Part shown: one piece after another, positions 669-56,290 of the stretch
Layout of the letters: each line of letters starts with the position of its first letter
How positions within the stretch are numbered: position 1 is the stretch's first letter
Assembly: GCA_021414225.1 (NCBI GenBank)
Contig: JAIOOX010000002.1
Span: forward strand, 25,113 to 89,112
Direction: 5' to 3'
Source: Candidatus Vogelbacteria bacterium
GTDB lineage: Bacteria; Patescibacteriota; Minisyncoccia; Phycocordibacterales; XYD1-FULL-46-19
Length of the DNA stretch: 64,000 nt
Made by a program: the position numbers and the translations under genes
The notes under the pieces: model-generated
Seen by the model: only the letters and a program-made list of their open reading frames with translations
What the model was told of the DNA's origin: nothing
The model's database searches: none

Positions 669-3635
669 ATGTCAGATCTAGACTATAAATTCACTGAAGA
701 ATATAAGCGTTTAAATACTCACCAAAAGGAGGCGGTGGACACTATTGAAGGTCCGGTGATGGTGGTGGCTGGTCCAGGGACAGGTAAAACTCAAATTTTA
801 ACCTTACGCATTGCCAATATTCTCAAACAAACCGATACCGCCCCGGCTAATATTTTAGCCTTAACCTTTACTGAAAGCGCGGCGGCCAATATGCGGAAAC
901 GTTTAGCGACTATTGTTGGTAGTCGAGCCTACCAGGTGGTGATTAGTACTTTTCATGGTTTTTGTAATGACGTGATCAAAAATTATCCAGAAGAATTCCC
1001 GCGAATTATTGGTTCGACTAATATTACGGAGATTGATCAAATAAAAATCATCGAAGAGTTACTGAACAAGTTGCCGTTGAAAATTTTGCGACCATTTGGT
1101 GATCCGCTGTTGTATGTGAAGCCAATCTTGTCATCGATTAATGAATTAAAACGAGAAGGTTTGAGTCCAGCTGAGTTTACTCAGATTGTGGTTAAAAAAG
1201 ATAAATCGTTTGATCAAATTCCTGACTTGCGCCACGAGAAAGGAGCTCATAAAGGTAAAGTGAAATCAATGTACGAAAAGTTGCGTCGGCAGATTGATAA
1301 AAATTTGGAATTGGCCGACGTTTATGCTGGTTACGAAGCGGAACTGACTAAACGTAAATTTTATGATTACAGTGACATGATCATGGAAGTGTTGCGGGAA
1401 TTGCGAACCAATCAGACTTTGCTCTCTAGTCTCCAAGAAGAACATCAATACATTTTGGTGGATGAACATCAAGATACCAACAATGCCCAAAATAAAGTCT
1501 TGGAATTAATCGCTAGCTTTCATGACTATCCCAACTTGTTTGTGGTGGGGGACGAAAAGCAAGCTGTCTTTCGTTTTCAGGGAGCATCGCTAGAAAATTT
1601 TTATTATTTCAAACACCGTTTTCCAGAAGCTAAATTAATAGTCTTGGAAGATAATTACCGTTCGACACAGGCGATTCTTGACCAGGCTCATTCACTGCTA
1701 CCTGGTCAGGCGGAGTTGAAGGCTAACACGGGTCACTTAGCCGAATCTATCAAAGTAGCTGTCTGTTCGTCGCCCTTATCGGAGTTGTATTTTGTGGCTT
1801 CGTCCGTCAAATATCAGATTGCGTCCGGGGTTGAGCCGTCAGAGATAGCTGTTTTGTATCGAGACAATCGAGACGCTTTTCCTATTGCTAACGTACTTGA
1901 TAAATTGGGGGTGTCTTGTGTGATTGAATCTGATGACAATTTACTCGCCGATATTGATATTCGGAAGTTGCTGATTTTATTTAAAGCTATTTATTATTTT
2001 GATAATGATGAAGCTTTGGCTCAAGCTCTACATTTAGACTTCTTGGGAGTAGAACCAATTGACGCTTATGGTTTGATCAGACAAGCTAGTCAATCAAAAC
2101 AATCTTTGATTTCTTTGGTAGGCGGAAAGTTTCCAACCTTAGCCAAACAACTGTCCGATTGGAATGTGGCGAGCCATAATTTGGAATTACTACCACTCGT
2201 GGAGAAAGTTTTGAAAGAATCAAAGTTGCTAGACAGGCTAGTCACCAGCAGTACGGCTCGAAAACGGCTAGAGACCATTGGTGCTTTATTTAATACTATG
2301 TCTGATTTGGTGGCGAGCCATCCGGAAGCGGGGCTAGAAGATTTCCTCGAATTTATCGAAACGGTCAACAAACATCAAGTGTTATTGAAAAATAAAAGTC
2401 GAGCAAGTGTGGTTGGCAAGGTACGCCTGATGACTGTCCATCGGTCCAAAGGTTTGGAGTTTCAATCGGTCTTTATTATTGGCGCTTATGACGGTCACTT
2501 TGGTGGTCGGAGTAGTCGCGACAAATTGAAGTTATTGTCCGAAATATATCAGTTGGTTGATAGAGACAAAGAAGGGGGTGAAGAGGACGACAAAGATACT
2601 GGTGATGAACGACGCTTGTTTTATGTAGCCTTAACTAGAGCTAAGCAATTGGTCACCATTAGTTTGTCGGCGATTAGTGATAGTGGTCGTGAACAGGTGC
2701 CAAGTCAGTTTATTGCCGAACTGAAGCCTGAGTTAATAGAATATGTTGATACAAGTGGTTTGACTGACAAGTTAGCTGAAGTTCGAGAAACTTTGCTTAG
2801 CCCGACTCCAGCCAAGGAGAGTGACCTAAAGGATCGGGAATATATTGCTGGTTTGTTTCGTGATCAGGGTTTGTCGGTCACAGCTTTAAATAACTACCTG
2901 GCTTGTCCATGGCAATACTTTTATCGTAATCTCATTCGTTTGCCAGCGGTGCCGACCAAGCATCAGGCTTATGGTATTGCGGTTCACGCGGCCCTCAGAG
3001 ACGCCTTCAAGCATGCCAAGGAGCGAGATATTACCAAAGAGTCACTCTTGGCTAGTTTTGAGAAGTATCTTCGTCAGGAGCCGTTAACGGAAAAGGATTT
3101 GGTGGAGACCTTGGCAAAAGGTTTGGAATCACTTAGTGGGTGGTTTGATACTTATCACCAAAGTTGGAATATTAATGTGTTGACCGAGTTTAATATTAAA
3201 GGAGTGGAGTTAACTTCAGATATTAAATTGGTGGGAATGCTCGATAAAATAGAGTTTACAGGGGATGGTGCTGATGTAAATGTAGCAGATTATAAAACTG
3301 GCAAGCCAAAAAGCCGGAATGATTTGATGGGCGCGACTCGTGATGCGGATGGAAATTATTACCGCCAGTTGGTGTTTTATAAAATCCTGTTAGATTTATT
3401 TGAGGATGGAAAGTATAAGATGATGTCTGGGGAAATAGATTTCGTGGAGCCAAATGATACGGGGAAGTATAAAAAAGAAAAGTTTGAGATTCCAGATAAT
3501 GATGTGATTGAATTGACTGATACGATTAAAAAAGTGGCGGATGAAATTATTAATCTAAAGTTTTGGGATAAAACTTGTGATGATAAGGATTGTGAATACT
3601 GTGCCTTGCGACGGCTAATGACAGACGCTAACTAA
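669..3635 (+). CDS. ATP-dependent DNA helicase / nuclease fusion: UvrD-REP superfamily 1 helicase (N-terminal) plus a RecB/AddB/Cas4-like PD-(D/E)xK nuclease with a Cys cluster (C-terminal)
   Basis: Walker A GPGTGKT near the N-terminus, UvrD-like motifs (VDEHQDTN, TVHRSKGLEF, VALTRA). C-terminal D...IEF...DYKTGK...YYRQLVFY nuclease core flanked by CPWQY and CDDKDCEYC cysteines. Confidence 0.8.
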   Translation: MSDLDYKFTEEYKRLNTHQKEAVDTIEGPVMVVAGPGTGKTQILTLRIANILKQTDTAPANILALTFTESAAANMRKRLATIVGSRAYQVVISTFHGFCNDVIKNYPEEFPRIIGSTNITEIDQIKIIEELLNKLPLKILRPFGDPLLYVKPILSSINELKREGLSPAEFTQIVVKKDKSFDQIPDLRHEKGAHKGKVKSMYEKLRRQIDKNLELADVYAGYEAELTKRKFYDYSDMIMEVLRELRTNQTLLSSLQEEHQYILVDEHQDTNNAQNKVLELIASFHDYPNLFVVGDEKQAVFRFQGASLENFYYFKHRFPEAKLIVLEDNYRSTQAILDQAHSLLPGQAELKANTGHLAESIKVAVCSSPLSELYFVASSVKYQIASGVEPSEIAVLYRDNRDAFPIANVLDKLGVSCVIESDDNLLADIDIRKLLILFKAIYYFDNDEALAQALHLDFLGVEPIDAYGLIRQASQSKQSLISLVGGKFPTLAKQLSDWNVASHNLELLPLVEKVLKESKLLDRLVTSSTARKRLETIGALFNTMSDLVASHPEAGLEDFLEFIETVNKHQVLLKNKSRASVVGKVRLMTVHRSKGLEFQSVFIIGAYDGHFGGRSSRDKLKLLSEIYQLVDRDKEGGEEDDKDTGDERRLFYVALTRAKQLVTISLSAISDSGREQVPSQFIAELKPELIEYVDTSGLTDKLAEVRETLLSPTPAKESDLKDREYIAGLFRDQGLSVTALNNYLACPWQYFYRNLIRLPAVPTKHQAYGIAVHAALRDAFKHAKERDITKESLLASFEKYLRQEPLTEKDLVETLAKGLESLSGWFDTYHQSWNINVLTEFNIKGVELTSDIKLVGMLDKIEFTGDGADVNVADYKTGKPKSRNDLMGATRDADGNYYRQLVFYKILLDLFEDGKYKMMSGEIDFVEPNDTGKYKKEKFEIPDNDVIELTDTIKKVADEIINLKFWDKTCDDKDCEYCALRRLMTDAN

Positions 3636-3722
3636 AGCAATTTTGGAGCACGGATATTTTCTTGCTAGAAAATTCCTCAAGTCTCGATCCGTCGATCTTC
3701 CGAAGTCTCCAAAATTGCTTTA
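3633..3722 (+). repeat. Family 1 structured intergenic element, copy A
   Basis: Core gagcacggata...ttgcta...cctcaagtctcg...cgaagtctc enclosed by the inverted arms taaagcaattttggag / ctccaaaattgcttta. Starts at the helicase stop codon. Second copy at 9932..10035. Confidence 0.6.
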
Positions 3723-3750
3723 GTTTGCTTAACTTAAAAAATAAAAAAAC

Positions 3751-4241: not shown

Positions 4242-5426
4242 CTATCGAGTATCTTTGAGAGTAAGACTTGGATAGAGACCTAAAAGTGTCACAACACCTA
4301 GAGCGAAGAATATGGTTTGGTAGTTGTCGGTGTTAAGGAAAATTAAAGCAAAAGCTGGGGCGGCTATATAAGCTAAAGGTGAAAGGTTTCTCGAGAAGCT
4401 AAGGATGGGGGCGTCGTTCCCGTCAATTCGTTTGAAAAGAGCTGTTTCTTTCATAATCTCGATGGTGGCGGCACCCACTCGAGTTAGAAAAAGTAGCCCT
4501 GCCCAGAGCCACATATATTTCGTCTGCAAAGTTGATATTAAAATAGTGGCGACACCGGCAATCATAAAGCCAGTCGCCAAGAGTTCTCGTTCACCCAACC
4601 ACTTGTCGGCTATTTTACCGAGTGGGTATTCAATGATAACAAATGGAATTAACATGATGGTGAAAATAAAACCGATTTCTGTCCAAGAAAAACCAATTTG
4701 TTCATGAAGGAGTAGTGGTAAATAAATCACCATGACTGCGTAGAAGAAGTTTAGTAAAAAATCGGTTGTGAGAATTTTGCGAAGAGCTCGATCTTTGGCG
4801 GTGTTTAATTTGCCCAATCGGGCCAATAGGTCTTGGATGGTGCTGGTTGGGTCACACACTGTTCGTTCGGGTAAAACCTTACCAATAATGATCATGAAAG
4901 GCACCATTAAAATCGCGGAAATAAAATACAATAAATAAAATCTTTCGGTTGGACCCAAGATGGTGCTAGCAATGATAGGAGAAGCGAGCCAAGCTAGGTT
5001 GATGATAGTCATAAAGACGCCACGGATACCACCAGTGTCTTTGTTGTCAGAGATTGTTTCTAGATAAAGATCGGTGTTATAACGGGCGACTTGAGTGAGG
5101 GCGTAGTAGGAGATAAAACCCAAGATCGAAAATAAAACCAGAGGGGATTGCCAGACAATGAGGAGTAGTCCACCAATACTGAGGCTGGAAATAATAACGG
5201 TTGATAATTTGATTCCTAGTCGACACAGGATCTTAGGTATTAGTAGGGTTAAAATAATCGTAGTAATAGAGCCTAAACTATAAATTAACCCAACTTTATT
5301 TTCGGGTACTAAAGTAGCTAAATAGGAGGAGTTGATGTAGGAAGTCAGAGAAGCGGTCAGAGTTAAAAAAAAGACCGCTACATAGGTGATAATGCGAAGT
5401 TGTTTGGCTGAAGCGTTTACGAGCAT
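4242..5426 (-). CDS. MFS-type transporter (about 12 TM helices)
   Basis: 394-aa highly hydrophobic protein with the alternating TM / short-loop organisation typical of the major facilitator superfamily. Confidence 0.6.
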   Translation of the reverse strand: MLVNASAKQLRIITYVAVFFLTLTASLTSYINSSYLATLVPENKVGLIYSLGSITTIILTLLIPKILCRLGIKLSTVIISSLSIGGLLLIVWQSPLVLFSILGFISYYALTQVARYNTDLYLETISDNKDTGGIRGVFMTIINLAWLASPIIASTILGPTERFYLLYFISAILMVPFMIIIGKVLPERTVCDPTSTIQDLLARLGKLNTAKDRALRKILTTDFLLNFFYAVMVIYLPLLLHEQIGFSWTEIGFIFTIMLIPFVIIEYPLGKIADKWLGERELLATGFMIAGVATILISTLQTKYMWLWAGLLFLTRVGAATIEIMKETALFKRIDGNDAPILSFSRNLSPLAYIAAPAFALIFLNTDNYQTIFFALGVVTLLGLYPSLTLKDTR

Positions 5427-5454
5427 GGGTTAATTATACTGGAAGAGTGGTAAT

Positions 5455-5483
5455 TTAAAAACCCGCCGATCGGCGGGTTTTTA
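5455..5483. terminator. Bidirectional intrinsic terminator aaaaacccgccgatcggcgggttttt
   Basis: Perfect GC stem flanked by an A tract and a T tract. Lies downstream of the RNase J gene. Confidence 0.7.
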
Positions 5484-5485
5484 AA

Positions 5486-7381
5486 TTAAACTTCAATTAA
5501 GACAGGAAGAATGATTGGTCGTTTGTGAGTTTTTTGGAAGAGGTATCTACCCAAGTCTTCTCGAACGGAATTTTTGAGATAATCAAAATTAATTGGGTGC
5601 ATTTTACTGGTGGCGTCTTCAATTGTTTTTTTAGTTAAGCCACGAACTTGGTGAAGGAGATCTTGAGATTCTTTTAGATAAACAAAGCCACGAGAAATAA
5701 TGTCTGGTGATTTGCGAACCTTACCAGTTTTTACATCAATAATGGCGATGACCACAAACATACCGTCTTGTGACAAGACCTGTCGATCACGAATGACTAC
5801 TTCTTGAACATTGTCGTTGCCTAAACCGTCAACCATTACTAAGCGACTAGAAGCTGTTTCCTTGCGAGGGATCATTTTGGTTCCACCTTCAATGATTTCT
5901 ACAATCATGCCGTTGTCTGGTACAACAATATTTTTCTCAGGCATACCTAGTGAAATGGCTAAATCTTCGTGAACGCGCAACATGTAATGACTGCCGTGTA
6001 CTGGCATGAAGAACTTCGGCTTAATCATTTTGTGAATCCAGGCCATTTCACCACTGTAAGAGTGGCCAGATGAGTGGACGTTGGCGATACCATAGTGAAT
6101 GATCTTAGCTCCAAGGCGAGCTAAGTTGTCTTTCAATCGATCAACACTTTTTTCATTACCAGGAATAACAGATGAAGATAGTAAGACAGTGTCTCCCTTT
6201 TTCAATTTGAAAGTACGGTGTTCTTTATTGGAGATACGCATTAAAGCAGCAAACTCGTCACCTTGAGCGCCGGTAGCCAAGACTACTAGACGATCGTCGG
6301 GATAATCCCCAATACTTTCTGAGGGGATAATAGTATCTTTGTTTACTTTAAGAATACCGAGTTCTTTAGCGATCTCGATATTATTTTTCATCGAACGTCC
6401 TTCGACGGCGACTTTTTTGCCCAATTCTTCAGCGGACTGAACAACTGAGATGATGCGATCAAATAAAGAAGCAAAAGTCCCAATAACTATTCGGCCGGGC
6501 ACGTTGCGGATGATTTCTTTTAGGTTGGCGTGGACTTCTTTTTCTGGATAAGAGAATCCTTCCTTGGTGACGTTTGTGGAATCAGCGATAAGGAGTAGAT
6601 TATTTTCCGCTCCGAGTTTAGTGTAGGTATCAATCTCAAATTGAGCTGGAACACCATCCTTATTTTCGATTTTTAAATCGCCAGTGAAAATGACATTACC
6701 ATAAGGGGTTTCGACGATGACACCAAAACAGTCAGGAATAGTGTGAGTGGCCCCGAAGAAACGAATCTTAAGGTCTCCTAGTTGCAAACTCTCATGTTTT
6801 TCCACCAAACGAATATCTAGTTTGGGTAGATAAGGAAATTCTTCTTGACGCTTCTTAATCATAACTGAGGTCAATAGAGAAGTATAAAGTGGCGGATTGC
6901 CGAGTTTTGGCATGACATAAGGGATACCCCCGATGTGGTCAAGGTGGCCGTGAGTAATAATAACCGCTTTGATTTTGTGTTTATTATCTTCAACGTAAGT
7001 AGAGTCAGGAATAATGTAATCAATACCAGGAGTTTCTTCGCCAGGGAAAGCTAGACCGATGTCGATCACTAAAATGGTGTTATCAAATTCGATTGCGGTC
7101 ATATTCTTACCGATTTCTTCTACCCCTCCAAGAGGAATAACCCGGATAACACCCGGGTCAATTGGTGGAATAATTTGTTTTTGACGATTATCGCTTTTCT
7201 CACCACCATCACCACTGTTGTGGGGTTGGCTATTACCGAAAGGTCGACGACGTGGGCCACCTGGTCGAGAGTTAGGTGGGCGTCTGGTTGGTCGACGATT
7301 GCCGGCTGGTTTTGGTTTATTGGTGTCAGGACTTGGGACGGTGGCCGGAACTGCTGTTTGGTTGCTATCTGTTGTTTCCAT
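5486..7381 (-). CDS. rnj: Ribonuclease J (metallo-beta-lactamase / beta-CASP family) with a roughly 75-aa Pro/Arg/Gly-rich N-terminal extension
   Basis: HGHLDHIGG motif, beta-CASP region, C-terminal RNase J domain. N-terminus PATVPSPDTNKPKPAGNRRPTRRPPNSRPGGPRRRP is low-complexity and basic. Confidence 0.85.
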   Translation of the reverse strand: METTDSNQTAVPATVPSPDTNKPKPAGNRRPTRRPPNSRPGGPRRRPFGNSQPHNSGDGGEKSDNRQKQIIPPIDPGVIRVIPLGGVEEIGKNMTAIEFDNTILVIDIGLAFPGEETPGIDYIIPDSTYVEDNKHKIKAVIITHGHLDHIGGIPYVMPKLGNPPLYTSLLTSVMIKKRQEEFPYLPKLDIRLVEKHESLQLGDLKIRFFGATHTIPDCFGVIVETPYGNVIFTGDLKIENKDGVPAQFEIDTYTKLGAENNLLLIADSTNVTKEGFSYPEKEVHANLKEIIRNVPGRIVIGTFASLFDRIISVVQSAEELGKKVAVEGRSMKNNIEIAKELGILKVNKDTIIPSESIGDYPDDRLVVLATGAQGDEFAALMRISNKEHRTFKLKKGDTVLLSSSVIPGNEKSVDRLKDNLARLGAKIIHYGIANVHSSGHSYSGEMAWIHKMIKPKFFMPVHGSHYMLRVHEDLAISLGMPEKNIVVPDNGMIVEIIEGGTKMIPRKETASSRLVMVDGLGNDNVQEVVIRDRQVLSQDGMFVVIAIIDVKTGKVRKSPDIISRGFVYLKESQDLLHQVRGLTKKTIEDATSKMHPINFDYLKNSVREDLGRYLFQKTHKRPIILPVLIEV

Positions 7382-7407
7382 AAATGTTGTTCTAATTTAA
7401 TAATTTT

Positions 7408-9192
7408 CTATTGTTTAATAATGTTGTTGTTGCTAGCAAATATTTTCCAAATACTCTCGGTGTTAATGAATGTTTTGTGTATCTCATTAAATCGATCGCT
7501 GGTAGTTTGGAGAGTATTTAGTTTTAGGTTTTTTAGTTCATCGGGTATCGCATAAATAAAATAAGGAGCATATAAGAAGATGGCGGGAATATCATTTTGA
7601 ATTTCTTGGATAGCTTTATTTTGATCAATTTTACTTTGATCAGGATCTAAGGTGGTGCGAGAATTATCCAACCATTTGTCTACTTTAAGGTTTGTATATT
7701 GGGCAATATTTAAACCAGGATCTAAACGTTGAGATGAGTGCCAAAAAGCAAATAAGCCTTGATTTTGACTGACCACCTGACCAAATAGAAGAGCATCATA
7801 TTTACGAGGTCTAATAGCTGTTTGTTGTAAGGTTCCAGTTTCAAAAACTTTTAACTCAACATCAACTCCAACTTTTTTCCAAGTATTTTGGATTATTTCG
7901 CCCGCTTTTTTTAACTCTGGTGTATCAGAAGTTGATAAGGACAAACTCAAAGTAGTTGTAGTTTTCTTTTTTGGGTCGGTTTTCTCGTAGATACCAGTGG
8001 AGGTATTTTTTTTCCAACCAGCTTGTTCTAAAATTGCCCGAGCTTGTTCAATTTTTTGGTTCTCGTTGTAATTGTCTTTAGGGGCTTGATTCGTTTGGGT
8101 GGGGCCGTTTAAAGGTAAGCCGTGACCCAGTAGAACTTTTGTGACTAGAGTGTCTTTATTGATAGCCGTGTCTAAAGCCAAGCGAACTTCTTTGTTGGCT
8201 AAAACGGGAGCTTGGTTTTGGTTAAAGAAAATAGCAAAAATACGAGGTAGGGGTGATTCCTCAACGCGAGCGTTTTTTAATTTTAAATTATTAGCCACTT
8301 CTGGACTGATCGCTGCCATCGAATTTATAGCACCAGTTTCGTAGGCTAACAAACGTTCAGTTTCGTTGGGATAAATATTTATGACAATGGAGATTCGTGG
8401 TTTACCTAGGGCAAAATTAGAAAAAGGCTCTAAGTTATAATATTGAGGAATACCAGTAGAATCTTTTTTCATCTTACTGATTAAGTAAGGTCCGGAACCA
8501 ATCGGATTAGTATTTAAATCACTAAAAGGGAAATTGTCTGGGGTGACATCTGACCATAAATGTTTTGGTAAAATACCGATAGTTAAATTTTCCAGAAAAC
8601 CAATATATGGTTGCTCTAGGACAAAAACAATTGTTTGAGCATCGGGTTTTTCTACAGAAACTCCCTGCCAGTTGGCCCGCCGAGGGCTTTTGATTAGAGG
8701 ATCTTGAGCTTTGCTGATAGTAAATTCAATGTCGTCACTAGTTAGAGGTTGATCGTCATGCCAGGTCAAATCTGGCTTTAAAGTAAAGGTGTAACGTTTA
8801 CCATCAGTTGAAACTTCGTATTTTTCTGCTAAATCAGTGGTTAGTGATCCATCAGCCTCCCTTCTTAGTAAACCAGAGTAGACTAAGTTGGTCATGTCTC
8901 GGTCGGTGTCGTAGGTGGCTAGAATCGGGTTAATAAATCTAAGTGGTCCGACCATGCCCTCTGTCATACTGCCACCACTGGTAGCAATTTGAGTCATGGA
9001 ATTTTTGTTAGCTAAGATTAAACTAGAAACCAAGGTAATGGTGCCTATAATAGCGAGACAGAGTAAAAGTAGCTGTACTTTTTTAGGAAAAGAAACATAA
9101 GCAGCTTTTAATTCTAACTTATTAGGGATAGCTCGGGAGTTGGTTAACCAAGAGCTAATCTTGGCTTTAAACGCCACAAAAAGATCGTTCAC
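7408..9192 (-). CDS. ABC transporter substrate-binding protein, family 5 (oligo/dipeptide-type), membrane-anchored
   Basis: 594 aa, N-terminal TM anchor, family-5 SBP-like length and motifs. Inferred from the overall pattern. Confidence 0.6.
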   Translation of the reverse strand: MNDLFVAFKAKISSWLTNSRAIPNKLELKAAYVSFPKKVQLLLLCLAIIGTITLVSSLILANKNSMTQIATSGGSMTEGMVGPLRFINPILATYDTDRDMTNLVYSGLLRREADGSLTTDLAEKYEVSTDGKRYTFTLKPDLTWHDDQPLTSDDIEFTISKAQDPLIKSPRRANWQGVSVEKPDAQTIVFVLEQPYIGFLENLTIGILPKHLWSDVTPDNFPFSDLNTNPIGSGPYLISKMKKDSTGIPQYYNLEPFSNFALGKPRISIVINIYPNETERLLAYETGAINSMAAISPEVANNLKLKNARVEESPLPRIFAIFFNQNQAPVLANKEVRLALDTAINKDTLVTKVLLGHGLPLNGPTQTNQAPKDNYNENQKIEQARAILEQAGWKKNTSTGIYEKTDPKKKTTTTLSLSLSTSDTPELKKAGEIIQNTWKKVGVDVELKVFETGTLQQTAIRPRKYDALLFGQVVSQNQGLFAFWHSSQRLDPGLNIAQYTNLKVDKWLDNSRTTLDPDQSKIDQNKAIQEIQNDIPAIFLYAPYFIYAIPDELKNLKLNTLQTTSDRFNEIHKTFINTESIWKIFASNNNIIKQ

Positions 9193-9931: not shown

Positions 9932-10035
9932 GCGCTCGCTTAGATTTTAAATTAGAGCACGGATAAACTTTTGCTAAAGTTTTCCTCAGTCTCGGCTACC
10001 CGCCTGCGAAGTCTCTAATTTAAAACTAAGCTCGC
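9932..10035 (+). repeat. Family 1 structured intergenic element, copy B, in the groES-groEL spacer
   Basis: Same core as copy A (gagcacggata, hairpin with loop ttgcta, cctcagtctcg, cgaagtctc). Different but again self-complementary outer arms gcgctcgcttagattttaaattagag / ctctaatttaaaactaagctcgc. Confidence 0.6.
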
Positions 10036-11703: not shown

Positions 11704-11712
11704 ATTAAGGTC

Positions 11713-11743
11713 AAAAAAATCACCCAACTGGGTGATTTTTTTG
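11713..11743 (+). terminator. Intrinsic terminator aaaaaaatcacccaactgggtgattttttt
   Basis: Perfect hairpin plus T tract after groEL. Confidence 0.75.
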
Positions 11744-12653: not shown

Positions 12654-12692
12654 AAACCACCACCTTGGCCCTAGGGCCAAGGTGGTGGTTTT
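12654..12692 (+). terminator. Intrinsic terminator aaaccaccaccttggccctagggccaaggtggtggtttt
   Basis: 16-bp perfect stem plus T tract. Confidence 0.75.
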
Positions 12693-13310: not shown

Positions 13311-15302
13311 ATGTTGGTTAGGCTAGTAAAATACATAACAATTCCGGCCCTAGTTTTTTTTCTAGTGCCGGTTTTGGTTTTTGGCCAGAGTAATCGATCA
13401 TATTTCTATGATCAGATTGTGGTCGACATTCAAACCAATAAAGATTCTACGGTCGATATAACCGAACGACAGACATATCATTTTAACGGAGAATATCACC
13501 AAGGTTGGAGATCCATTCCTTTAAAAGGATTTAGTAGTATTACTGATGTTGTGGTTAGCAATTCTGATGCCCCGCTTAAATATTCTTCTCGGCGACTCAA
13601 TAAGCTTGATCCGGCTAGTTGGGGTCACTACACTTACTTCAAAGATGAAAACGGTTTTAATATCGAATGGTATTTTGGTCCCAATGATGTTCCTGAGTGG
13701 ACACTCTCCTATAAAGTGCATGGAGCGATTAGTTTTCTAAAAGACAAAGACGAACTATATTGGAATATTTTTAGTGATTATTCTGTACCAGTCGACTCCC
13801 TGGAAGTTCATGTTTTTCCTCCAGACGAAGCGCTGGCAGCTAATCAAATACAGTCAACGGTTTATACATCCTCTGTTCCATACCAGTCTTGGCCAGAAGT
13901 TTATAAAGATTCTACCTCTGGCATAAAGTTGGCTGGGTTAACTATGCAGCTCCATGATGCTCCCCCTTATGAAAAGGTGACTGTTGCTGTCGGTTGGCCC
14001 AAAGAGATTGTTGACCAAGGGGCTTTTTGGAGGTGGTGGCTAGGTGATAATATTTTGGCAATTGTTATGGGGGTATTAATAATTTTGAATATGATAGGTT
14101 GGTTTGGGTATTGGTATTTTACTGAACGTTTTCGCAAAGGGACTGGAACCATTATTCCGCAATATGAACCGGCTTTAAATTTAAGACCAGCTGAGGTGGA
14201 GGTGGTGATGAAAGAAAGTGTTACCGCAGTTGGTTGGTCAGCGACCGTTGTGGATTTAGCGGTGAGGGGATTTCTTTTGATTAAAGAAGATAAAACCAGA
14301 ATTCCAAAATTTATTAAATGGGCTTACAGCTTGTTTTTTATAGGTATTTTTATTTTCTTAGGCTCTGGTTTTGTGGGAGCTCTTTCAAGTCATCAAACAA
14401 CGAATATTGGATTTATGGCAGTGTTTTCCTTTTTTATAATAGGTTCTTTTATAGTTGGCCTAAGTAAGTTTTCAAAAAAAGATTATTTGGTTGAAAAAAC
14501 TAATAAAGATAACTCCACCCTACTATCTTACGAGAGAGAATTTATTAACATTTTGTGTGGTTCTACTAGTTACGTTTTTTCAACCAGAGAACTTAGGACT
14601 AATGAATCTATGGCTAAGAAGATTTATGAGAGAATGAAAAAAAATGAAGTAGACTTATATAGTATTCTTGATAAAGATAACAATCTATATAGTAACAATT
14701 TAGCTAAAGAAAAAAAGGGTCAAGTCGTCTTTTTGTTTATGGTCATGGGTAGTTTTTTCGTCATCTGGTTAGGGAGTTTTTTCAGTCCGGTGTCTGATTT
14801 TATTTTGAAATATTTCGGTGTAGAGTTCTTAACTTTACCAATACTAGTTGTTGTATTTTTGTTGTTAACATTGGTAAACATTTGGTATTTTTTAATTAAA
14901 TACGAAGCACGTTTGTCGGATAAAGGTAATAAAGCCAAAGAAGATTTACTTGGGTTTAAGTTGTATCTAAAAACAGCTGAACGTTATCGGTTGCAAAATC
15001 TGACGCCAGATTTGTTTGAAAAGTTTTTACCATACGCCATGGTGTTTGGAGTTGAGAAAGAGTGGGGTAAAGCCTTTGCTTCACTCAGTGTTCCACCTCC
15101 ATCTTGGTATAGTGGTGCCTATGGAGGGGCTACAATGGGATCTTCTTCAATAAGTAGTTCCGGATTTTCCGCTGGGGCCTTCTCGTCTTCTTTTTCTTCT
15201 AGTTTCTCATCGGCTTTTTCTAGTTCTGGAGCTAGTGGTGGTTCGGGTGGGGGTGGTTCTGCTGGTGGCGGTGGAGGAGGAGGTGGAGGTGGGGCTAGTT
15301 AG
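13311..15302 (+). CDS. DUF2207-type membrane protein (usual LemA partner) with a Gly/Ser-rich C-terminal tail
   Basis: 663 aa: signal peptide, extracytoplasmic domain, several TM helices, C-terminal SSSFSSSFSSAFSSSGASGGSGGGGSAGGGGGGGGGGAS. Confidence 0.6.
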   Translation: MLVRLVKYITIPALVFFLVPVLVFGQSNRSYFYDQIVVDIQTNKDSTVDITERQTYHFNGEYHQGWRSIPLKGFSSITDVVVSNSDAPLKYSSRRLNKLDPASWGHYTYFKDENGFNIEWYFGPNDVPEWTLSYKVHGAISFLKDKDELYWNIFSDYSVPVDSLEVHVFPPDEALAANQIQSTVYTSSVPYQSWPEVYKDSTSGIKLAGLTMQLHDAPPYEKVTVAVGWPKEIVDQGAFWRWWLGDNILAIVMGVLIILNMIGWFGYWYFTERFRKGTGTIIPQYEPALNLRPAEVEVVMKESVTAVGWSATVVDLAVRGFLLIKEDKTRIPKFIKWAYSLFFIGIFIFLGSGFVGALSSHQTTNIGFMAVFSFFIIGSFIVGLSKFSKKDYLVEKTNKDNSTLLSYEREFINILCGSTSYVFSTRELRTNESMAKKIYERMKKNEVDLYSILDKDNNLYSNNLAKEKKGQVVFLFMVMGSFFVIWLGSFFSPVSDFILKYFGVEFLTLPILVVVFLLLTLVNIWYFLIKYEARLSDKGNKAKEDLLGFKLYLKTAERYRLQNLTPDLFEKFLPYAMVFGVEKEWGKAFASLSVPPPSWYSGAYGGATMGSSSISSSGFSAGAFSSSFSSSFSSAFSSSGASGGSGGGGSAGGGGGGGGGGAS

Positions 15303-17640: not shown

Positions 17641-17746
17641 TACTCCGAGGTGCTTCCGCAACAAAATAAACTTTAGCTGGTGTGGCTTTTATGCAGCGAT
17701 GGGGAAGTTTGTTAATTTTTAAAATGGGTTATTATTAACAGTAATT

Positions 17747-19555: not shown

Positions 19556-21901
19556 GTGAACCTTTTATTAAAATATTATCAATTTTCTACAAAGTTTATG
19601 GCTAAAGCAAAAAAAGTAATCAAGAAAGCAATCACAACTCCCAAAACAGTCAGTTTTGTACAGAAAATTACTAAACGAGATGGTACGGTGGCAAAATTTG
19701 ATATAAACAAGGTAGCTAGCGCTGTTTTGAAGGCGATGAAGGCTACGGGTGAAGGTGGAGAGAAAGAGGCGCTTAAGGTAGCAAATCAGACTTTAAAAGA
19801 ACTTAAAGAAATCAATAAAACAGCCGGAAAAAATTTCGTTCCTTCTGTAGAACAGATCCAGGATTTGGTAGAAAAGAGTTTGATTATGGAGCAGTTTGCG
19901 GTTACAGCTAAGGCTTATATTCTTTATCGTCAGAGACGAACCGAATTACGTCAAGAGTTGGGTGAGGTGCCTCAACATGTTAAAGATTTGGCTGAAAAGA
20001 GTAAACAATATTTTCGTAATCCGTTAGGAGAGTTTGTTTATTATCGAACCTATTCTCGTTGGATTGAAGAGGAGGGTCGTCGCGAAACTTGGATTGAAAC
20101 AGTTGATCGCTATTTGAGTTTTATGAAAGAGAATATCGGCAATAAGTTGACTGATAAAGAGTATGAAGAGGTGCGAGAGGCGATTCTTAATCATCAAGCT
20201 ATGCCGTCGATGCGTTTACTGCAATTTGCTGGCAAGGCGTCCCGGAATACCAATGTCTGTGCTTACAACTGTTCTTTTATTGCCCCTAAGACTCTAAAAG
20301 ATTTTGCGGAGGTAATGTATATCTCGATGTGTGGTACAGGTGTTGGTTTTTCAGTGGAAAGTAAAAATATTCAACTTTTACCGATTATTAAAGAACAGAC
20401 TGGCAAACATCGACCAACCTTTGTGGTGGCTGACAGTAAAGAAGGGTGGTGTGATGCTTTAGTTTATGGTTTGGAAACTTGGTTTACAGGTGAAGATGTT
20501 GAGTTTGATTTCTCTCTTTTGCGTCCAGCGGGAGCTCGTCTTAAGATAATGGGAGGCAAATCATCTGGTCCAGAACCATTACGCCAGCTACTTAGTTTTT
20601 CTCGAGAGAAGATTTTACGACGTCAGGGTAAACGTTTAACTAACATCGATGCCCACGATATTTTGTGTAAAATAGGTGAGATTGTCGTGTCAGGAGGCGT
20701 TCGCCGCAGTGCTATGATCTCATTGTCTGACCTGGACGATGAGCAAATTCGCCACGCTAAACATGGTCAATTTTATTTAACTGAACCGCAACGCAGTCTG
20801 GCTAACAACTCAGCTGTTTACAACAACAAGCCATCGAACACTGACTTTTTAGAAGAGTGGATTGCTTTAATGAAAAGTGGTTCTGGTGAAAGAGGTATCT
20901 TTAACCGCGGTGGTCTAGCAACTTCGTTACCTAAACGTCGACTAGATACTCTGAAAGGTCAGATTGGAGAGTTGGGAACTAATCCTTGTGGGGAAATTAT
21001 TTTACAATCTAAGCAGTTTTGTAATCTATCAGAAATAGTGGCTCGTCATGAAGACACAGAGGCTTCGCTAATGAAAAAAATGAAGGTAGCGGCTATTTTG
21101 GGAACCTTCCAATCAACCCTTACCAACTTCCCGTATCTGTCTAAAGAATGGAGAGAAAACTGTGAGACAGAAAGACTTTTGGGTGTGTCGGTAACCGGTA
21201 TGTGGGATAGTCATGTGGCACGTGACCCTAAGGTGTTGAGAAAACTAAAAGAAGAGGCAATCAAGGTTAATAAGGTTTACGCGAAAAGATTTGGTGTTAA
21301 TGAATCAACAGCTATCACTTGTGTGAAGCCTTCAGGTACTTTGTCTCAAATGGTAGATTGTGCATCTGGGATGCACCCTCGTCATGCTCAATATTATATC
21401 CGTCGGGTGAGAATTTCCGCGACTGATTCACTCTTTAAAATGTTGCGTGACCAAGGAGTGCCATATCACCCAGAGGTTGGTCAGGCGTTAGATTCTGCAA
21501 CTACATATGTGTTTGAATTTCCAGTTAAGGCGCCTGAAAAATCTCTCTATAAGGATGATATGGGAGCAGTCGAGCAATTAAAATATTGGAAGTTGGTTAA
21601 AGAAAACTATACTGAGCATAATCCGTCAGTAACTGTTTCAGTCAGGGAGGATGAGTGGATCGAAGTGGCTCACTGGGTGTTTTCCAATTGGGAAATAGTC
21701 GGTGGTCTATCTTTCTTGCCTAGTGATAACCATGTGTACCAATTAGCGCCTTACGAAAAGATTGATGAGAAGAGATATAAGGAAATGCTTAAAAACTTTG
21801 GCGACATTGATTACTCTAAGATTATCTCTTACGAAAAACACGATGAGACCGAACAGAAGAAAGAGTTGGCTTGTGCTGGGGGAGTGTGTGAGATTGTTTA
21901 A
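19556..21901 (+). CDS. nrdJ: Class II (adenosylcobalamin-dependent) ribonucleotide reductase with N-terminal ATP-cone. True start may be the internal Met at about 19598 (MAKAKKVIKK).
   Basis: ATP-cone (VQKITKRDGTVAKFDINKVASAV), class II RNR core, C-terminal redox cysteine pair CAGGVCEIV. Confidence 0.8.
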   Translation: MNLLLKYYQFSTKFMAKAKKVIKKAITTPKTVSFVQKITKRDGTVAKFDINKVASAVLKAMKATGEGGEKEALKVANQTLKELKEINKTAGKNFVPSVEQIQDLVEKSLIMEQFAVTAKAYILYRQRRTELRQELGEVPQHVKDLAEKSKQYFRNPLGEFVYYRTYSRWIEEEGRRETWIETVDRYLSFMKENIGNKLTDKEYEEVREAILNHQAMPSMRLLQFAGKASRNTNVCAYNCSFIAPKTLKDFAEVMYISMCGTGVGFSVESKNIQLLPIIKEQTGKHRPTFVVADSKEGWCDALVYGLETWFTGEDVEFDFSLLRPAGARLKIMGGKSSGPEPLRQLLSFSREKILRRQGKRLTNIDAHDILCKIGEIVVSGGVRRSAMISLSDLDDEQIRHAKHGQFYLTEPQRSLANNSAVYNNKPSNTDFLEEWIALMKSGSGERGIFNRGGLATSLPKRRLDTLKGQIGELGTNPCGEIILQSKQFCNLSEIVARHEDTEASLMKKMKVAAILGTFQSTLTNFPYLSKEWRENCETERLLGVSVTGMWDSHVARDPKVLRKLKEEAIKVNKVYAKRFGVNESTAITCVKPSGTLSQMVDCASGMHPRHAQYYIRRVRISATDSLFKMLRDQGVPYHPEVGQALDSATTYVFEFPVKAPEKSLYKDDMGAVEQLKYWKLVKENYTEHNPSVTVSVREDEWIEVAHWVFSNWEIVGGLSFLPSDNHVYQLAPYEKIDEKRYKEMLKNFGDIDYSKIISYEKHDETEQKKELACAGGVCEIV

Positions 21902-21913
21902 AAGGCGATCGCC

Positions 21914-22062
21914 TAATTGTTTTTCAAACCACAGAAAACCACCCCAGCGGGTGGTTTTCTTCTGCTTCACGTCGGCTATTTTGCCTTACTGGAGTACCAG
22001 CCTAAAACCATGAGGCAAAAACCGGCTAGCCGACAGTTACGCAGGGGTTTGAAAAACAATTA
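21914..22062 (+). repeat. Family 2 structured intergenic element, copy 1, directly after the nrdJ stop
   Basis: About 150 nt bounded by the perfect 16-nt inverted repeat taattgtttttcaaacc / ggtttgaaaaacaatta. The roughly 115-nt core, including the internal hairpin aaaaccaccccagcgggtggtttt, is about 95% identical to the reverse complement of 37657..37809. Confidence 0.7.
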
Positions 22063-22085
22063 GGCTCACTTAGATCTGGAAATAC

Positions 22086-22116
22086 AAAAAACCCGGCGTA
22101 AAGCCGGGTTTTTTGA
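22086..22116. terminator. Intrinsic terminator aaaaacccggcgtaaagccgggtttttt at the 3' end of RNase P RNA; bidirectional
   Basis: Perfect 8-bp GC stem flanked by an A tract and a T tract. Confidence 0.7.
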
Positions 22117-22122
22117 TGTTTG

Positions 22123-22564
22123 GATTGTTGTCGATAAGCCGAATTCTGTACCGATTTTGCCCACCACAGGGGACGCAAAATCGAGTACTCTGAGTTTATC
22201 GAAGAGTGGCCTTTCGACTAGCTCAAGGTGCTCAATTTTGTAATTACCTGCGGTGAACAAAATTGGCGATAGTTATTTATCTGGGATGAATATTACTATT
22301 CACCTCGAGCGGCACAAACCATTGGTAAACCAATGGAGTACGGCCTTGCACACACGTAAGGATTTAGCCGTTTCAGCCAAGTGTTGCCACCTGACAACTC
22401 CAGTCAGACTGGAGCCCTAGCCTTTCGGCGTTGGCGTTTCTGTTCGCACCTCGATCCTTGCGGACGACGGGTGTTACCCGCTACGCTTCCTGTTTACACA
22501 GGTATGTGTTCGGACTTTCCTCCGAGCACTATAAATAGTGCTCGGCAACTATCTGACAACAATC
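22123..22564 (-). ncRNA. rnpB: RNase P RNA (bacterial type A-like)
   Basis: On the minus strand: P1 pairing gattgttgtc / gacaacaatc at the two ends, P3 hairpin gagcactatttatagtgctc, universal P4 strands GAGGAAAGUCCGAAC (rc of 22511..22524) and ACAGAAUUCGGCUUAUC (rc of 22134..22150). The ORF-track ORFs at 22066..22260 and 22381..22581 fall inside it. Confidence 0.8.
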
Positions 22565-30335: not shown

Positions 30336-30368
30336 CACTTCGACAAGCTCAATGTAAAACACATTAAC

Positions 30369-30397
30369 CAAAAATCCGCCATTTGGCGGATTTTTGG
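30369..30397. terminator. Bidirectional intrinsic terminator aaaaatccgccatttggcggatttttgg
   Basis: Perfect stem flanked by an A tract and a T tract, between tRNA-Phe and the hsp20 3' end. Confidence 0.7.
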
Positions 30398-30402
30398 TTT
30401 TA

Positions 30403-36618: not shown

Positions 36619-36628
36619 CTAATTAAAT

Positions 36629-36663
36629 AAAAAATCCCAGAGTCAGACTCTGGGATTTTTTAT
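36629..36663. terminator. Bidirectional intrinsic terminator aaaaaatcccagagtcagactctgggattttttat
   Basis: Perfect 10-bp stem flanked by an A tract and a T tract, between tRNA-Val (+) and the trxB 3' end (-). Confidence 0.75.
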
Positions 36664-36668
36664 TTAGA

Positions 36669-37634: not shown

Positions 37635-37656
37635 TGCTTTTAAGAGCTAAACGAGA

Positions 37657-37809
37657 CTAGTTCTGTAACAAACCCTTGCGTAACTGTCGACTAGCTGGTT
37701 TTTGCCTCATGGTTTTAGGCTGGTACTCCAGTAAGGCAAAATAGCCGACGTGGAGCAGAAGAAAACCACCCGCTGGGGTGGTTTTCTGTGGTTTGGAGCA
37801 GAAGCTAGT
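37657..37809 (-). repeat. Family 2 structured intergenic element, copy 2 (inverted relative to copy 1), directly after the ftsZ stop
   Basis: The reverse complement matches 21927..22057 almost base for base. Outer arms ctagttctgtaacaaaccc / ggtttggagcagaagctag again form a self-complementary pair but differ from copy 1. Confidence 0.7.
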
Positions 37810-37817: not shown

Positions 37818-39026
37818 TTATTTTTTATTTGACCGTCTTAGGAAAGCGGGGATTGATGACCAGTCGTCATCTTCGCCATTGTCGGCGGTTTCTTCTCTAT
37901 CAACACGGACGGTATCAAAAGCGTTTCGGACTGGGGGTCTTTCTTTGACAACTGGCGGTGGAGGAATAATCTCTTTTTCTTTGGCGGCAGGAGGAGGGGT
38001 GGTGGTTGTTTCTTCTTTAGTTTGATTAAAACCAAAAATACTAGATTCATTTTTCTTACCTCGAGCTATATCGGTTGGAAAACCACAAGCAATAACAGTG
38101 ACTTTAACTTCACCCTTCTTAATTTTATCATCATGAATAGTTCCAAAAATAACTCGAGCATCAGAATCGATAGACTCGGTCACCACCTTAGCGGCTTCTT
38201 GGATTTCGTGCATAGTTAGGTCTGAACCACCAGCAATGGTAAAGAGGACACCGCGGGCACCGTGGATTGATAGATCGAGTAGAGGAGAGTTAATGGCGGC
38301 TTTAGAAGCTTCCACAGCTCTGTTCTCGCCAGAAGCACTACCAATACCCATCAAGGCTGAGCCAGCATTTTGCATAACTGAACGAATATCGGCAAAGTCG
38401 ACGTTGATCAAACCAGGACTAGTAATAGTATTAGAAATACCCTCGACTGCTTGACGAAGAATCTCATCACACATAGCAAAAGCAGACACGGCGGTTGTGT
38501 CTTTGGTGATAATATTCATTAGACGATCATTTGGAATCGCAATAATCGCATCCACTTCTTTTCGTAAATCTTCCATACCGCGATCAGCTAGAGTCATGCG
38601 GTTTTTGCCTTCAAAAAAGAAAGGACGAGTAATTACCGCTACTGTCAGAGCACCTTGATCCTTGGCGACTTTAGCCACTACAGGAGCGGCACCAGTACCA
38701 GTACCACCACCGAGTCCACAAGAAACAAAGACCATATCGGCGCCTTTGATAACATTTTGAATGTCTTCCAAACTTTCTTCAGCTGCCTTGCGTCCAATTT
38801 CTGGATCCATGCCAGTACCTAAACCACGAGTTAGATTTTTACCAATGTGAATTTTTTTAGAAGCGAGAGAGTGGTGAAGATGTTGAGCGTCAGTGTTCAT
38901 GGCAATAAATTCTACGCCACGCACTTTTGACTCAACCATATGATTGACAGCGTTTGTTCCTGATCCACCAACACCAACTACTTTGATGCGAGCAAATGCT
39001 TCTATTTCGGGTTGAATTCTAGCCAT
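37818..39026 (-). CDS. ftsZ: Cell division protein FtsZ
   Basis: GGGTGTG tubulin signature (GLGGGTGTGAAPVVA), N-terminal IKVVGVGGSGTNAVNHM. Confidence 0.9.
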   Translation of the reverse strand: MARIQPEIEAFARIKVVGVGGSGTNAVNHMVESKVRGVEFIAMNTDAQHLHHSLASKKIHIGKNLTRGLGTGMDPEIGRKAAEESLEDIQNVIKGADMVFVSCGLGGGTGTGAAPVVAKVAKDQGALTVAVITRPFFFEGKNRMTLADRGMEDLRKEVDAIIAIPNDRLMNIITKDTTAVSAFAMCDEILRQAVEGISNTITSPGLINVDFADIRSVMQNAGSALMGIGSASGENRAVEASKAAINSPLLDLSIHGARGVLFTIAGGSDLTMHEIQEAAKVVTESIDSDARVIFGTIHDDKIKKGEVKVTVIACGFPTDIARGKKNESSIFGFNQTKEETTTTPPPAAKEKEIIPPPPVVKERPPVRNAFDTVRVDREETADNGEDDDWSSIPAFLRRSNKK

Positions 39027-44148: not shown

Positions 44149-44183
44149 AAAGACCCCGCCGGACTGAAGGTCCGGCGGGGTCT
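44149..44183 (-). terminator. Intrinsic terminator aagaccccgccggac-tgaag-gtccggcggggtctt downstream of rpsA
   Basis: 15-bp perfect GC-rich stem. T-rich tail on the minus strand. Confidence 0.7.
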
Positions 44184-44199
44184 TATCTTGCCTAAAAAT

Positions 44200-55521: not shown

Positions 55522-55737
55522 CTTCTTTTCTCCTGGTTTTTGCCCTTAAGCAAACACCTTTTTGTTTGTTTCCAATCAACTGTCAACGACCTTTCAATAT
55601 CTCTACAGCAGGGGATAATAGCCCCAACTGAGTATCTTTACTTCCACTCTCTATTATATCAGGTTTTATGAAAAAGTCAAGGGGTCTTAAATAACAAAAT
55701 ACCCCTGAGAATTAGGGGGATTTTACTACAAATCCAG

Positions 55738-55866
55738 GCGAGGGGAGACTCGCCCGCGACTAAATTTTTTGTCGACACAAAAAATTTGTCTGGGCACCAC
55801 CTCGGCCCCAAACTCTGCTGAGTCTGGACTGCGTGGCCTCCGGTGTTCGAGTCTCCCCTCGCCCCT
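55738..55866 (-). repeat. Family 3 tRNA-spacer repeat, copy a, bounded by the 15-nt perfect inverted repeat gcgaggggagactcg / cgagtctcccctcgc derived from the tRNA-Leu(TAG) 3' end
   Basis: Contains the AT-rich hairpin aaattttttgt-cgac-acaaaaaattt and the conserved segment tctgggcaccacctcggcccc...ctggactgcgtggcctccggtgttcgagtc, homologous to 56330..56412 and more loosely to 56040..56115. Confidence 0.6.
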
Positions 55867-55913
55867 ACAAAATAAAAAGCCCCAAAGCTATCGCTTTGAG
55901 ACTTAATATTTTG

Positions 55914-55995: not shown

Positions 55996-56023
55996 GATGT
56001 TTTGTTGTGAGAAATTCGGTCAC

Positions 56024-56239: not shown

Positions 56240-56290
56240 AATTGTAGGATTATAGTTTATTTGAGGGGGAAATTCAATTTTATAACCAAG

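Follow-up and report, generated by a model that had tools for sequence, protein, structure and literature searches.

The stretch of DNA analysed here, referred to below as the window, comprises 64,000 nucleotides (nt) of a genome of Candidatus Vogelbacteria, a member of the Candidate Phyla Radiation (CPR, or Patescibacteria), and carries, directly downstream of nrdJ and of ftsZ, two copies of a non-coding structured element of about 155 nt. Copy 1 occupies positions 21911-22065 on the plus strand and copy 2 positions 37657-37808 on the minus strand. As the earlier note on this DNA maintained, each copy adjoins the 3' end of a gene and has the same orientation as that gene, namely nrdJ (19556..21901, plus strand) and ftsZ (37818..39026, minus strand). 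Copy 1 follows the nrdJ stop codon (21901) and precedes a bidirectional terminator of canonical form (22086-22113), which separates it from the convergent RNase P RNA gene, rnpB (22119-22564, minus strand), the neighbor that had been named for this copy; the terminator serves rnpB as well and is unchanged in strains without copy 1. Copy 2 is flanked by ftsZ and a thioredoxin-reductase-like gene, both on the same strand. Because the GC skew is positive throughout the window, the two copies are opposite to each other relative to replication and alike relative to their upstream genes. The FtsZ and NrdJ proteins of the window are identical to proteins from a metagenome-assembled genome of Candidatus Vogelbacteria; a cyanobacterial origin, hinted at by GCGATCGC, is ruled out by these exact protein matches together with the ftsA-ftsZ synteny.

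The claim that the two copies are about 95% identical withstood alignment with MAFFT, blastn and a repeat search of the window: the complementarity is 91% over 158 nt (21925-22082 versus 37638-37795), and a core of 115-127 nt is common to both copies at about 95% identity. A 19-mer from this core has two matches in the window and none in 100 shuffles. The 48-codon open reading frame at 21917..22063 was rejected as a protein-coding gene because the copies differ by single-base indels and paired substitutions.

Each copy is closed by an inverted repeat. In copy 1, this repeat had been given as perfect over 16 nt; perfect it is, but its length is 20 base pairs (bp), with the 5' arm GCCTAATTGTTTTTCAAACC at 21911..21930 and the 3' arm GGTTTGAAAAACAATTAGGC at 22046..22065. 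In copy 2, the 5' arm (CTAGCTTCTGCTC followed by CAAACC, 37790..37808, minus strand) starts directly after the ftsZ stop codon (37818-37820) and does pair, as proposed, with the 3' arm (GGTTTG followed by TTACAGAACTAG, 37657..37674), albeit imperfectly, in segments of 6, 5 and 4 bp with a 3x3 loop and a bulge. The closing repeats had further been said to differ between the copies, which is true of the outer 12-14 bp but not of the inner 6 bp, CAAACC/GGTTTG (21925-21930 and 22046-22051 in copy 1), which are common to both and conserved in the family.

Predicted fold and covariation

Structure prediction, which had been recommended as a check on the repeats, yields the same three-way junction for all copies, consisting of the closing stem (P1), a hairpin (P2) and a long hairpin (P3) that stands on a short helix (P4) and is itself composed of three stacked helices with asymmetric loops. 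In copy 1, P2 is the terminator-like hairpin G-AAAACCACCC-CAGC-GGGTGGTTTT-C (21934..21959, plus strand), with symmetric A-tract and T-tract flanks, and it is matched by P2 of copy 2 (37761..37786, minus strand). The 5' strand of P4 (TGC, 21963..21965) pairs in the predicted fold with GCA at 22041-22043. P3 of copy 1 (21971..22034, plus strand) is built from P3a (GTCGGCTA/TAGCCGAC), P3b (TTTTGCCT/AGGCAAAA) and P3c (CTGG-AGTA-CCAG), with asymmetric internal loops, and P3 of copy 2 (37686..37749, minus strand) has one G.U pair in P3a (TAGTCGAC). Compared with shuffled sequences, the folding z-scores are -11.2 for copy 1 and -6.3 for copy 2; the value for the opposite strand of copy 1 is equally good (-10.9), so that folding energy does not choose the strand.

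The earlier description of the element as structured is strongly borne out by covariation and by the comparison of stems with loops. A covariance model built from eight Vogelbacteria-type copies recovers five distant ones (over the 244 kb of compared loci, it detected no copies beyond those known). In the resulting alignment of 13 copies, which is fitted to the structure model and so favors the structure, 96.5% of the cells contain standard pairs and both partners change in 23 of the 40 pairs; these values were not attained by any shuffle, and slid partners give 37-52% paired. Both-side changes affect 8 of 8 pairs in P3a, 5 of 8 in P3b and 9 of 9 in P1, and all cells of P3a and P3b are paired. 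Compensatory change is visible in the raw sequences, as in P3a of copy 1 (GTCGGCTA/TAGCCGAC) versus GTCGATGA/TCATCGAC in L007 (here and below, L-numbers denote contigs or loci of related genomes that were compared with the window). P4 contributes one covariation at the subfamily level, TGC/GCA in the Vogelbacteria subfamily and AGC/GCT in the subfamily located between rpsR and efp, and the unpaired linkers YRCGC and CCRKGC are conserved across distant copies.

A test on seven close copies, which is independent of the distant alignment, gives the same picture: only 1 of 74 paired sites varies, the change giving a G.U pair, as opposed to 11 of 54 unpaired sites (p = 0.0003). From this difference in variability it follows that the fold is either under selection or under a correcting mutational process, and the compensatory changes in the stems, which are less variable than the loops, suggest that it is clearly kept by selection, be it for the benefit of the host or for the element's own copying. 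The non-Watson-Crick pairs in P3, four G.U and no A.C, with G.U on the sense strand only, mildly favor the strand that matches the upstream gene. The converse argument, that the lack of G.U in the arms implies pairing at the DNA level only, was dropped as weak, G.U being rare (about 2%) in P3 too.

Distribution, insertion polymorphism and the closing stem

This family (Family 2) extends well past the window. Four further strains have the ftsZ copy, which also occurs, in diverged form, in another species (L007; FtsZ 82% identical), and the ftsZ 3' spacer is short and element-free in the relatives L008 and L011, an ordinary terminator being located there in one of the two. Scanning with the P2 20-mer brought up more copies in other Paceibacteria, after ftsZ (L013) and upstream of ftsA (L023). 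The spacer between rpsR and the convergent efp gene holds copies in four species (L019, L024, L026 and the truncated L021, which keeps P2). One subfamily has the inner terminal repeat GTGYGRAAG/CTTYCRCAC instead of CAAACC/GGTTTG. At all four independent loci, the orientation of the element is that of the upstream gene.

Copy 1 is polymorphic within the species. It is absent, 3' arm included, from L029 and L031, two independent assemblies that are 98% identical to the window (over 17 kb in the case of L029; L031 is a 2.4-kb contig that covers nrdJ), and is present in L030, which belongs to the same species and has an intact right flank, and in L027/L028 (82% identical), the 3' arm being found in L030 and L027. 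The nrdJ-rnpB spacer of L032 is empty as well. Furthermore, the contigs L002, L028 and L033 end inside elements. Presence and absence, occupied and empty orthologous sites, assembly breaks and the recombination tract described below all bear out the earlier suggestion of a small mobile element. Thus, we conclude that this is a dispersed, insertion-polymorphic, non-coding element family of Paceibacteria.

Searches elsewhere were negative: the P3 20-mer had no match in genome contigs, the 26-mer of P2 none in metagenomes, a scan of viral contigs gave none, and blastn found no match in phage and plasmid collections. A search of the whole window against Rfam 15 at the gathering threshold returned only RNase P RNA and tRNAs, and when copy 1, the L019 copy and a copy of Family 1 (see below) were scanned by E-value, only sub-threshold matches driven by the terminator-like hairpin appeared. 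Readings as 6S RNA, Y-RNA, signal recognition particle RNA, riboswitch or ribozyme were discarded, being devoid of Rfam support and at odds with the architecture. Full-text literature searches turned up no description of such elements in CPR bacteria.

The occupied and empty alleles at nrdJ provide the key to the closing stem. The empty allele reads TC GCCTAATTGTTTCT TTGTTATAAATGATAC and then the terminator; the filled allele of L030 reads TC GCCTAATTGTTTTT, CAAACC-core-GGTTTG, AAAAACAATTAGGC, TCAC TTGGTTCT TTGTTATAAATGACAC and then the terminator, and the segment TCAC TTGGTTCT TTGTTATAAATGACAC matches TTGTTTCT TTGTTATAAATGATAC of the empty allele. At the level of sequence, this comparison shows the outer left arm (GCCTAATTGTTTTT, 21911-21924 in copy 1; hereafter T), which corresponds to GCCTAATTGTTTCT in L029 and L031, to be native nrdJ 3' untranslated region (3'-UTR), the outer right arm (AAAAACAATTAGGC, 22052-22065; Tinv) to be a new, reverse-complement copy of the left flank, and the segment next to it to be a degraded direct copy (T'). 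These alleles show the layout of the filled site to be T - core - inverted T - (TC) - T', the T segment being the 14-22 nt found upstream in the empty site. In the window, T' is further decayed than in L030, and the right boundary TCACTTAGATCTGGAAATAC (22066..22085, plus strand) combines a TCAC/TCGC-TTA motif with T' and the remaining native spacer.

Two elements of the original description are to be revised in this light. The terminal inverted repeats had been called covarying, which holds for orthologous copies of different species, where compensatory change is found, but is misleading for the two paralogues in the window, the outer arms of which differ because each was templated from its own flank rather than by compensatory mutation of a shared repeat. 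Likewise, the remark that no target-site duplication is obvious must be tempered, as the comparison of filled and empty sites reveals a degraded direct repeat of the flank. At nrdJ, a possible 8-bp duplication (TTGTTTTT and TTGGTTCT, versus the single TTGTTTCT of the empty allele) can be discerned. In copy 2, the right boundary TCTCGTTTAGCTCTT (37642..37656, minus strand) contains the boundary motif and a degraded direct repeat of the left flank TCACTCAACTAGCTTCT that is not significant by shuffling, and the same applies to the similarity of TCGCTTGGCTCGG to the left flank TCGCTAGCTTCTCCG in the L007 orthologue. Insertion into a pre-existing palindrome is ruled out for copy 1, the empty allele having no palindrome there; simple deletion as the origin of the empty allele would have to have taken place between the 8-bp direct repeats and would then be indistinguishable from insertion with duplication.

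Closing stems measure 20-23 bp and are perfectly Watson-Crick paired in young-looking copies. At the orthologous rpsR-efp sites of three species, the arms are perfect over 23, 22 and 20 bp; their inner 9 bp covary, and no relation is seen among their outer 12-14 bp. In copy 2, in contrast, the imperfect arms drift without compensation among strains, so that the stems appear to be perfect when made, to decay later and to be renewed occasionally.

The same layout recurs in Family 1, with copies at 3627-3728 and 9938-10031 of the window and at 5210-5303 (minus strand) of L007. Its core of about 58 nt (CACGGATA...TTGCTA...TTCCTCA.GTCTCG...GAAGT) is unrelated to that of Family 2, and the scanned copy matched no Rfam family above threshold, but the architecture is identical: site-specific stems of 22, 20 and 18 bp, respectively, followed by a TCGCTTA-like sequence. 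The left arm of the copy at 3627-3728 is native since it includes the stop codon of the upstream UvrD/PDDEXK helicase gene. For the copy at 9938-10031, T (GCTCGCTTAGATTTTAAAT) and T' (GCTCGCTTAATTCTTAAAT) are similar to an extent seen in 0 of 300 shuffles; this copy must be transcribed because it lies inside the groES-groEL operon. A possible relative was noticed at 14483-14591, where an 18-nt inverted repeat (89%) with a 73-nt spacer, seen in a single copy, lies inside the open frame 13311..15302, which encodes the N- and C-domains of DUF2207; gene callers split this gene at the repeat in L029, and a third hairpin element may have been inserted here in frame.

Established copies seem to travel with their flanks. 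For the greater part of nrdJ, the window shows 98% identity to the strains with the empty allele and 82% to L027. In the final 90-130 nt of the gene, in contrast, filled alleles match L027 at 96-98% and the empty alleles at only 86-91%. Copy 1 thus entered the species, along with about 100 nt of foreign flank, on a recombination tract from a diverged lineage, and spread with flanks between strains and species by homologous recombination is shown for this one case. Multi-base loop variants common to non-orthologous copies (L030 at nrdJ and L001 at ftsZ) further point to conversion among copies.

At the boundaries, TC directly precedes the left arm and TC(G/A)CTT(A/G) follows the right arm in most copies of both families; in 8 of the 12 copies, some of which are orthologous, CTTA is found within 13 nt of the right arm, against a rough expectation of about 5%. 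The motif is partly explained by T' being a copy of TC plus T. The gene order of L027 departs from that of the window exactly after GGCTCACTT, on the right side of the locus-specific arm (L027 7589-7652 versus window 22066 onward); there, nrdJ and the element have a fructosamine-kinase-like gene as their next neighbor rather than rnpB. The exact TCGCTTA was ruled out as a genome-wide marker of the element: it occurs at background frequency, mostly without a hairpin. The boundary motif could reflect a preferred target, a site of nicking or recombination, or a signal in the RNA. Between convergent genes of L011 (7640-7697), we also observed a plain 17-bp palindrome, AGTCAACCCCCTCTAAGC-TC-GCTTAGAGGGGGTTGACT, with the center TAAGC-TC-GCTTA, the same as that found in the elements where the right arm meets the direct copy of the flank.

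Origin, function and alternatives

Could all these findings be accommodated in a single scenario? We tentatively prefer, at a level somewhat short of even confidence, a non-autonomous structured repeat the stem of which is templated at the insertion site, probably by template switching, and which provides a terminator-type hairpin for gene ends. Under this scenario, the mobile part would be the conserved core of about 115 nt with its own short terminal repeat (CAAACC/GGTTTG or GTGYGRAAG/CTTYCRCAC). After copying T and the core, a nascent strand would snap back on the terminal repeat of the core, copy its own T in reverse complement, and then return to the original template and copy T again, yielding T - core - inverted T - T'. 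The same process would later re-perfect the stem, and homologous recombination would carry the established element, flanks included, from strain to strain and from species to species. Template switching during replication creates and maintains perfect stems (Monttinen & Loytynoja 2022, PMC8794818).

As for the contribution to gene ends, the P2 stem, CCACCC/GGGTGG with the loop CAGC, is followed by TTTTCTTCT or TTTTCTAAG and is identical in 13 of 13 copies, including the L007 copy, which was found independently of P2. The P2 20-mer also occurs in genomes of Burkholderiaceae, Companilactobacillus and Salinivirgaceae and in an Uhrbacteria genome, where the surroundings are otherwise dissimilar and the hairpin, located after genes, carries longer T-tails in the manner of a terminator. 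By this analogy, P2, and the hairpin as a whole, probably acts as a terminator or 3'-end structure of the upstream gene. Such a role would account for the presence of Family 2 copies only at sites where termination is harmless and for the retention of P2 in the decayed L021 copy. The consensus promoter and terminator scanner applied to the window is uninformative here: it did not call P2, and it also missed the canonical terminator at 22086-22113, in which the A-tract pairs with the T-tract. The ordinary terminators of the window, for their part, are unusually long perfect palindromes with arms of 15-21 bp and loops of 0-5 nt (36624-36666, 5451-5488, 12654-12691, 30366-30399, 11712-11743 and 44150-44184), which suggests a genome-wide tendency toward perfect inverted repeats.

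Several observations weigh against this scenario. Template switching leaves the arrival of the core at a new locus unexplained. A clean pair of filled and empty sites is available at one locus only, nrdJ, with T' degraded there; the direct repeats at other loci are longer and also degraded, and the similarity of T to T' is significant in just 1 of 13 copies. T' keeps TCGCTTA even where T is without it, a consistency greater than simple copying of T predicts, and, along with the TC start, this hints at a sequence-specific nicking or recombination step beyond template switching. With respect to termination, only four or five T follow the P2 stem, and in copy 1 a separate canonical terminator comes next, so P2 may not terminate at all; its invariance is in part an artefact of ascertainment because P2 served as the search key for six of the 13 copies. 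Finally, a functional RNA is at least equally compatible with the conserved unpaired linkers and with an orientation in line with transcription.

The last point leads to the strongest alternative, which we nevertheless regard as doubtful: a host-useful, cis-encoded 3'-UTR RNA, the mobility of which would be secondary and the closing duplex of which, of about 20 bp, would be an RNase III site. Cleavage would either free a stable RNA of about 130 nt (P2 plus P3) or strip the mRNA of its protective terminator and so tune the upstream gene, as in the retroregulation by lambda sib. The covarying stems, the linkers preserved in distant copies, the far lower variability of paired than of unpaired sites, and the four G.U against zero A.C on the sense strand of P3 are all in line with this possibility. 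So are the agreement with the upstream gene at the four independent loci, with the window copies opposite in replication, the location of copy 1 between stop codon and true terminator, the uniform length of the closing stems (20-23 bp, about two helical turns) and the Family 1 copy within the groES-groEL operon. Among these, the orientation, the sense-only G.U and the placement of copy 1 provide what may be a hint of transcription-linked constraint. Against such an RNA stand its dispensability, given same-species strains without copy 1 and sister species without the ftsZ copy, the uncompensated drift of the copy 2 outer stem among strains and the equally good folding of the reverse strand; four loci in the same orientation amount to p of about 0.125, and the G.U events number only three or four. 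The right arm as a fresh copy of the flank would also be left unexplained.

An unlikely but potentially more far-reaching proposal is that we are dealing with an undescribed class of CPR elements, in which a folded core settles beside a TCGC-type site and makes, and from time to time renews, a closing stem of about 20 bp, or, in a parallel reading, with an unnamed functional RNA of Paceibacteria. In such a class, the host flank may be copied by hairpin-primed synthesis, carried out by a structure-specific nickase or by the replisome, with at least two unrelated cores; mobility may do without fixed terminal repeats, the target sequence being absorbed into the element. As an RNA, the core may be widespread and be freed from mRNA 3' ends by RNase III.

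Mobilisation by a dedicated enzyme appears improbable. Here, a structure-specific nickase or recombinase would cut the folded strand at TC|GC/TCGCTTA, at the foot of the hairpin, candidates being HUH/Y1 enzymes (REP-RAYT, IS200/IS605, IS91) or a serine recombinase acting at the palindromic center TAAGC-TC-GCTTA, and hairpin-primed synthesis up to the nick would make or renew the arms, as in hairpin transfer of the parvovirus type. This possibility would account for the placement of TC and TC(G/A)CTT(A/G) around the arms in most copies of both families, for the center CTAAGC-TC-GCTTAG of the plain L011 palindrome, and for the perfect yet unrelated arms at orthologous sites, which suggest repeated re-synthesis. 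It also fits the exact synteny break after GGCTCACTT in L027, to the right of the locus-specific arm, at which homologous recombination between copies could not act. However, no candidate enzyme is encoded beside any copy, the neighbors being housekeeping genes; the exact TCGCTTA is found at background frequency elsewhere without hairpins; the motif statistics come from about 12 copies, some of them orthologous; and the window copies lie on opposite replication strands, unlike the strand bias of the IS200/IS605 type.

A classical MITE (a miniature transposable element with inverted repeats), that is, a deletion derivative of an insertion sequence (IS) with fixed terminal repeats and a short target-site duplication, moved by a transposase in trans, is very hard to sustain, for although the size, the intergenic sites, the several copies, the presence/absence polymorphism, the CAAACC/GGTTTG repeat and the possible 8-bp duplication (TTGTTTTT/TTGGTTCT) at nrdJ would all be compatible with it, sequence-conserved terminal inverted repeats were not found (the common repeat is just 6 bp and differs between subfamilies), the 14 nt at the right end that are complementary to the target flank cannot be explained by cut-and-paste, compensatory change of internal stems is unexpected for transposase-binding ends, nothing similar turned up in the phage and plasmid collections, and no transposase gene is near any copy.

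Relation to known repeats and minor observations

Going by sequence and layout, the element is best placed among the small structured repeats of intergenic DNA (the REP/ERIC/MITE class), where flank-templated stems are its unusual feature; its function is unproven, and it may at the same time be regarded as a candidate new structured RNA motif of Paceibacteria. It shares with REP, BIME and REPIN sequences the character of extragenic palindromes at gene 3' ends and in convergent gaps, the folding into hairpins, the compensation in the arms, a possible part in termination or transcript stabilisation, and a tag at the foot of the hairpin. However, REPs are 20-40 nt long (REPINs about 70-110 nt) and their arms are the conserved part, whereas here the branched center is conserved and the outer arms are unique to the site and templated from the flank; instead of a GTAG or CGTC tag, there is a different one, TC|GC ... 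TCGCTTA, and no gene for a RAYT transposase was seen next to the copies. ERIC, Correia/NEMIS, RUP and BOX elements likewise are non-coding, 100-200 nt long, dispersed in transcribed intergenic DNA, found across species and strain-variable, with long hairpins that act on mRNA 3' ends. MITEs of the ERIC type differ in possessing family-wide terminal repeats and defined duplications (e.g., TA), in place of a shared terminal repeat of 6-9 bp, site-specific arms and an internal terminator-type hairpin.

The attC sites of integrons, which act as folded single strands, resemble the element as imperfect palindromes of 57-141 nt at gene 3' ends that are conserved in structure and variable in sequence. 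The arm ends of copy 1, GCCTAAT...ATTAGGC, are similar to the attC boxes RYYYAAC/GTTRRRY (6 of 7 positions), with AAT/ATT for AAC/GTT, but those of other copies differ. In attC sites, moreover, the ends are conserved and the center is variable, the reverse of the element, and they form cassette arrays beside an integrase; here, the neighbors are nrdJ, ftsZ, rpsR and groES, with no array or integrase. Intrinsic terminators share with P2 the GC-rich stem and the symmetric A/T tracts, but P2 is embedded in a branched structure of 155 nt with a second long covarying hairpin. In template-switch hairpins (PMC8794818), as envisaged here, one event writes a reverse-complement copy and thereby a perfect stem and a multi-base 'compensatory' change; those stems, however, lie within RNA genes and are not part of a dispersed repeat insertion, whereas in the present case a mobile core would nucleate the switch, which would leave T - core - inverted T - T. 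The non-coding RNA of retrons (msr-msd, with the a1/a2 repeats) is comparable in its outer inverted repeat, a short hairpin region followed by a long hairpin, and a length of about 150-200 nt, but the element has several dispersed copies per genome and takes its arms from the flank, and no reverse transcriptase adjoins it, the downstream genes being rnpB, the thioredoxin-reductase-like gene, efp and ftsA.

The genomes of CPR bacteria are tiny and are thought to be poor in repetitive or mobile DNA. A dispersed, cross-species, structure-selected family, accompanied by a sister family of the same architecture, is unexpected in this setting. Assemblers break on the element, and annotation pipelines will miss it because it is not in Rfam. 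The flank-templated stem represents a natural, datable, one-step origin of a long perfect stem, with implications for the origin of RNA hairpins and for the spread of small repeats without a transposase, and the recombination tract that carries the element reflects DNA exchange between lineages that are about 18% divergent. To our knowledge, almost no regulators are known in CPR organisms; if the element terminates or processes the transcripts of ftsZ, nrdJ, rpsR or groESL, it would add a new layer of gene control.

Three further features of these genomes are worth recording. The RNase P RNA at 22119-22564 is 446 nt long, against 367 positions in the model, and reaches a score of only 130 bits, which implies sizeable lineage-specific insertions. 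The sister strain L029 contains, at 4793-7916, about 3.1 kb of extra sequence encoding a KAP NTPase and a small sigma-70 region-4 protein, with no counterpart at 17667-17700 of the window. Finally, the tRNA cluster at 55737-56454 includes several perfect inverted repeats of 15-18 nt with tRNA T-arm-like sequence, which may be oppositely oriented tRNA genes or tRNA fragments.

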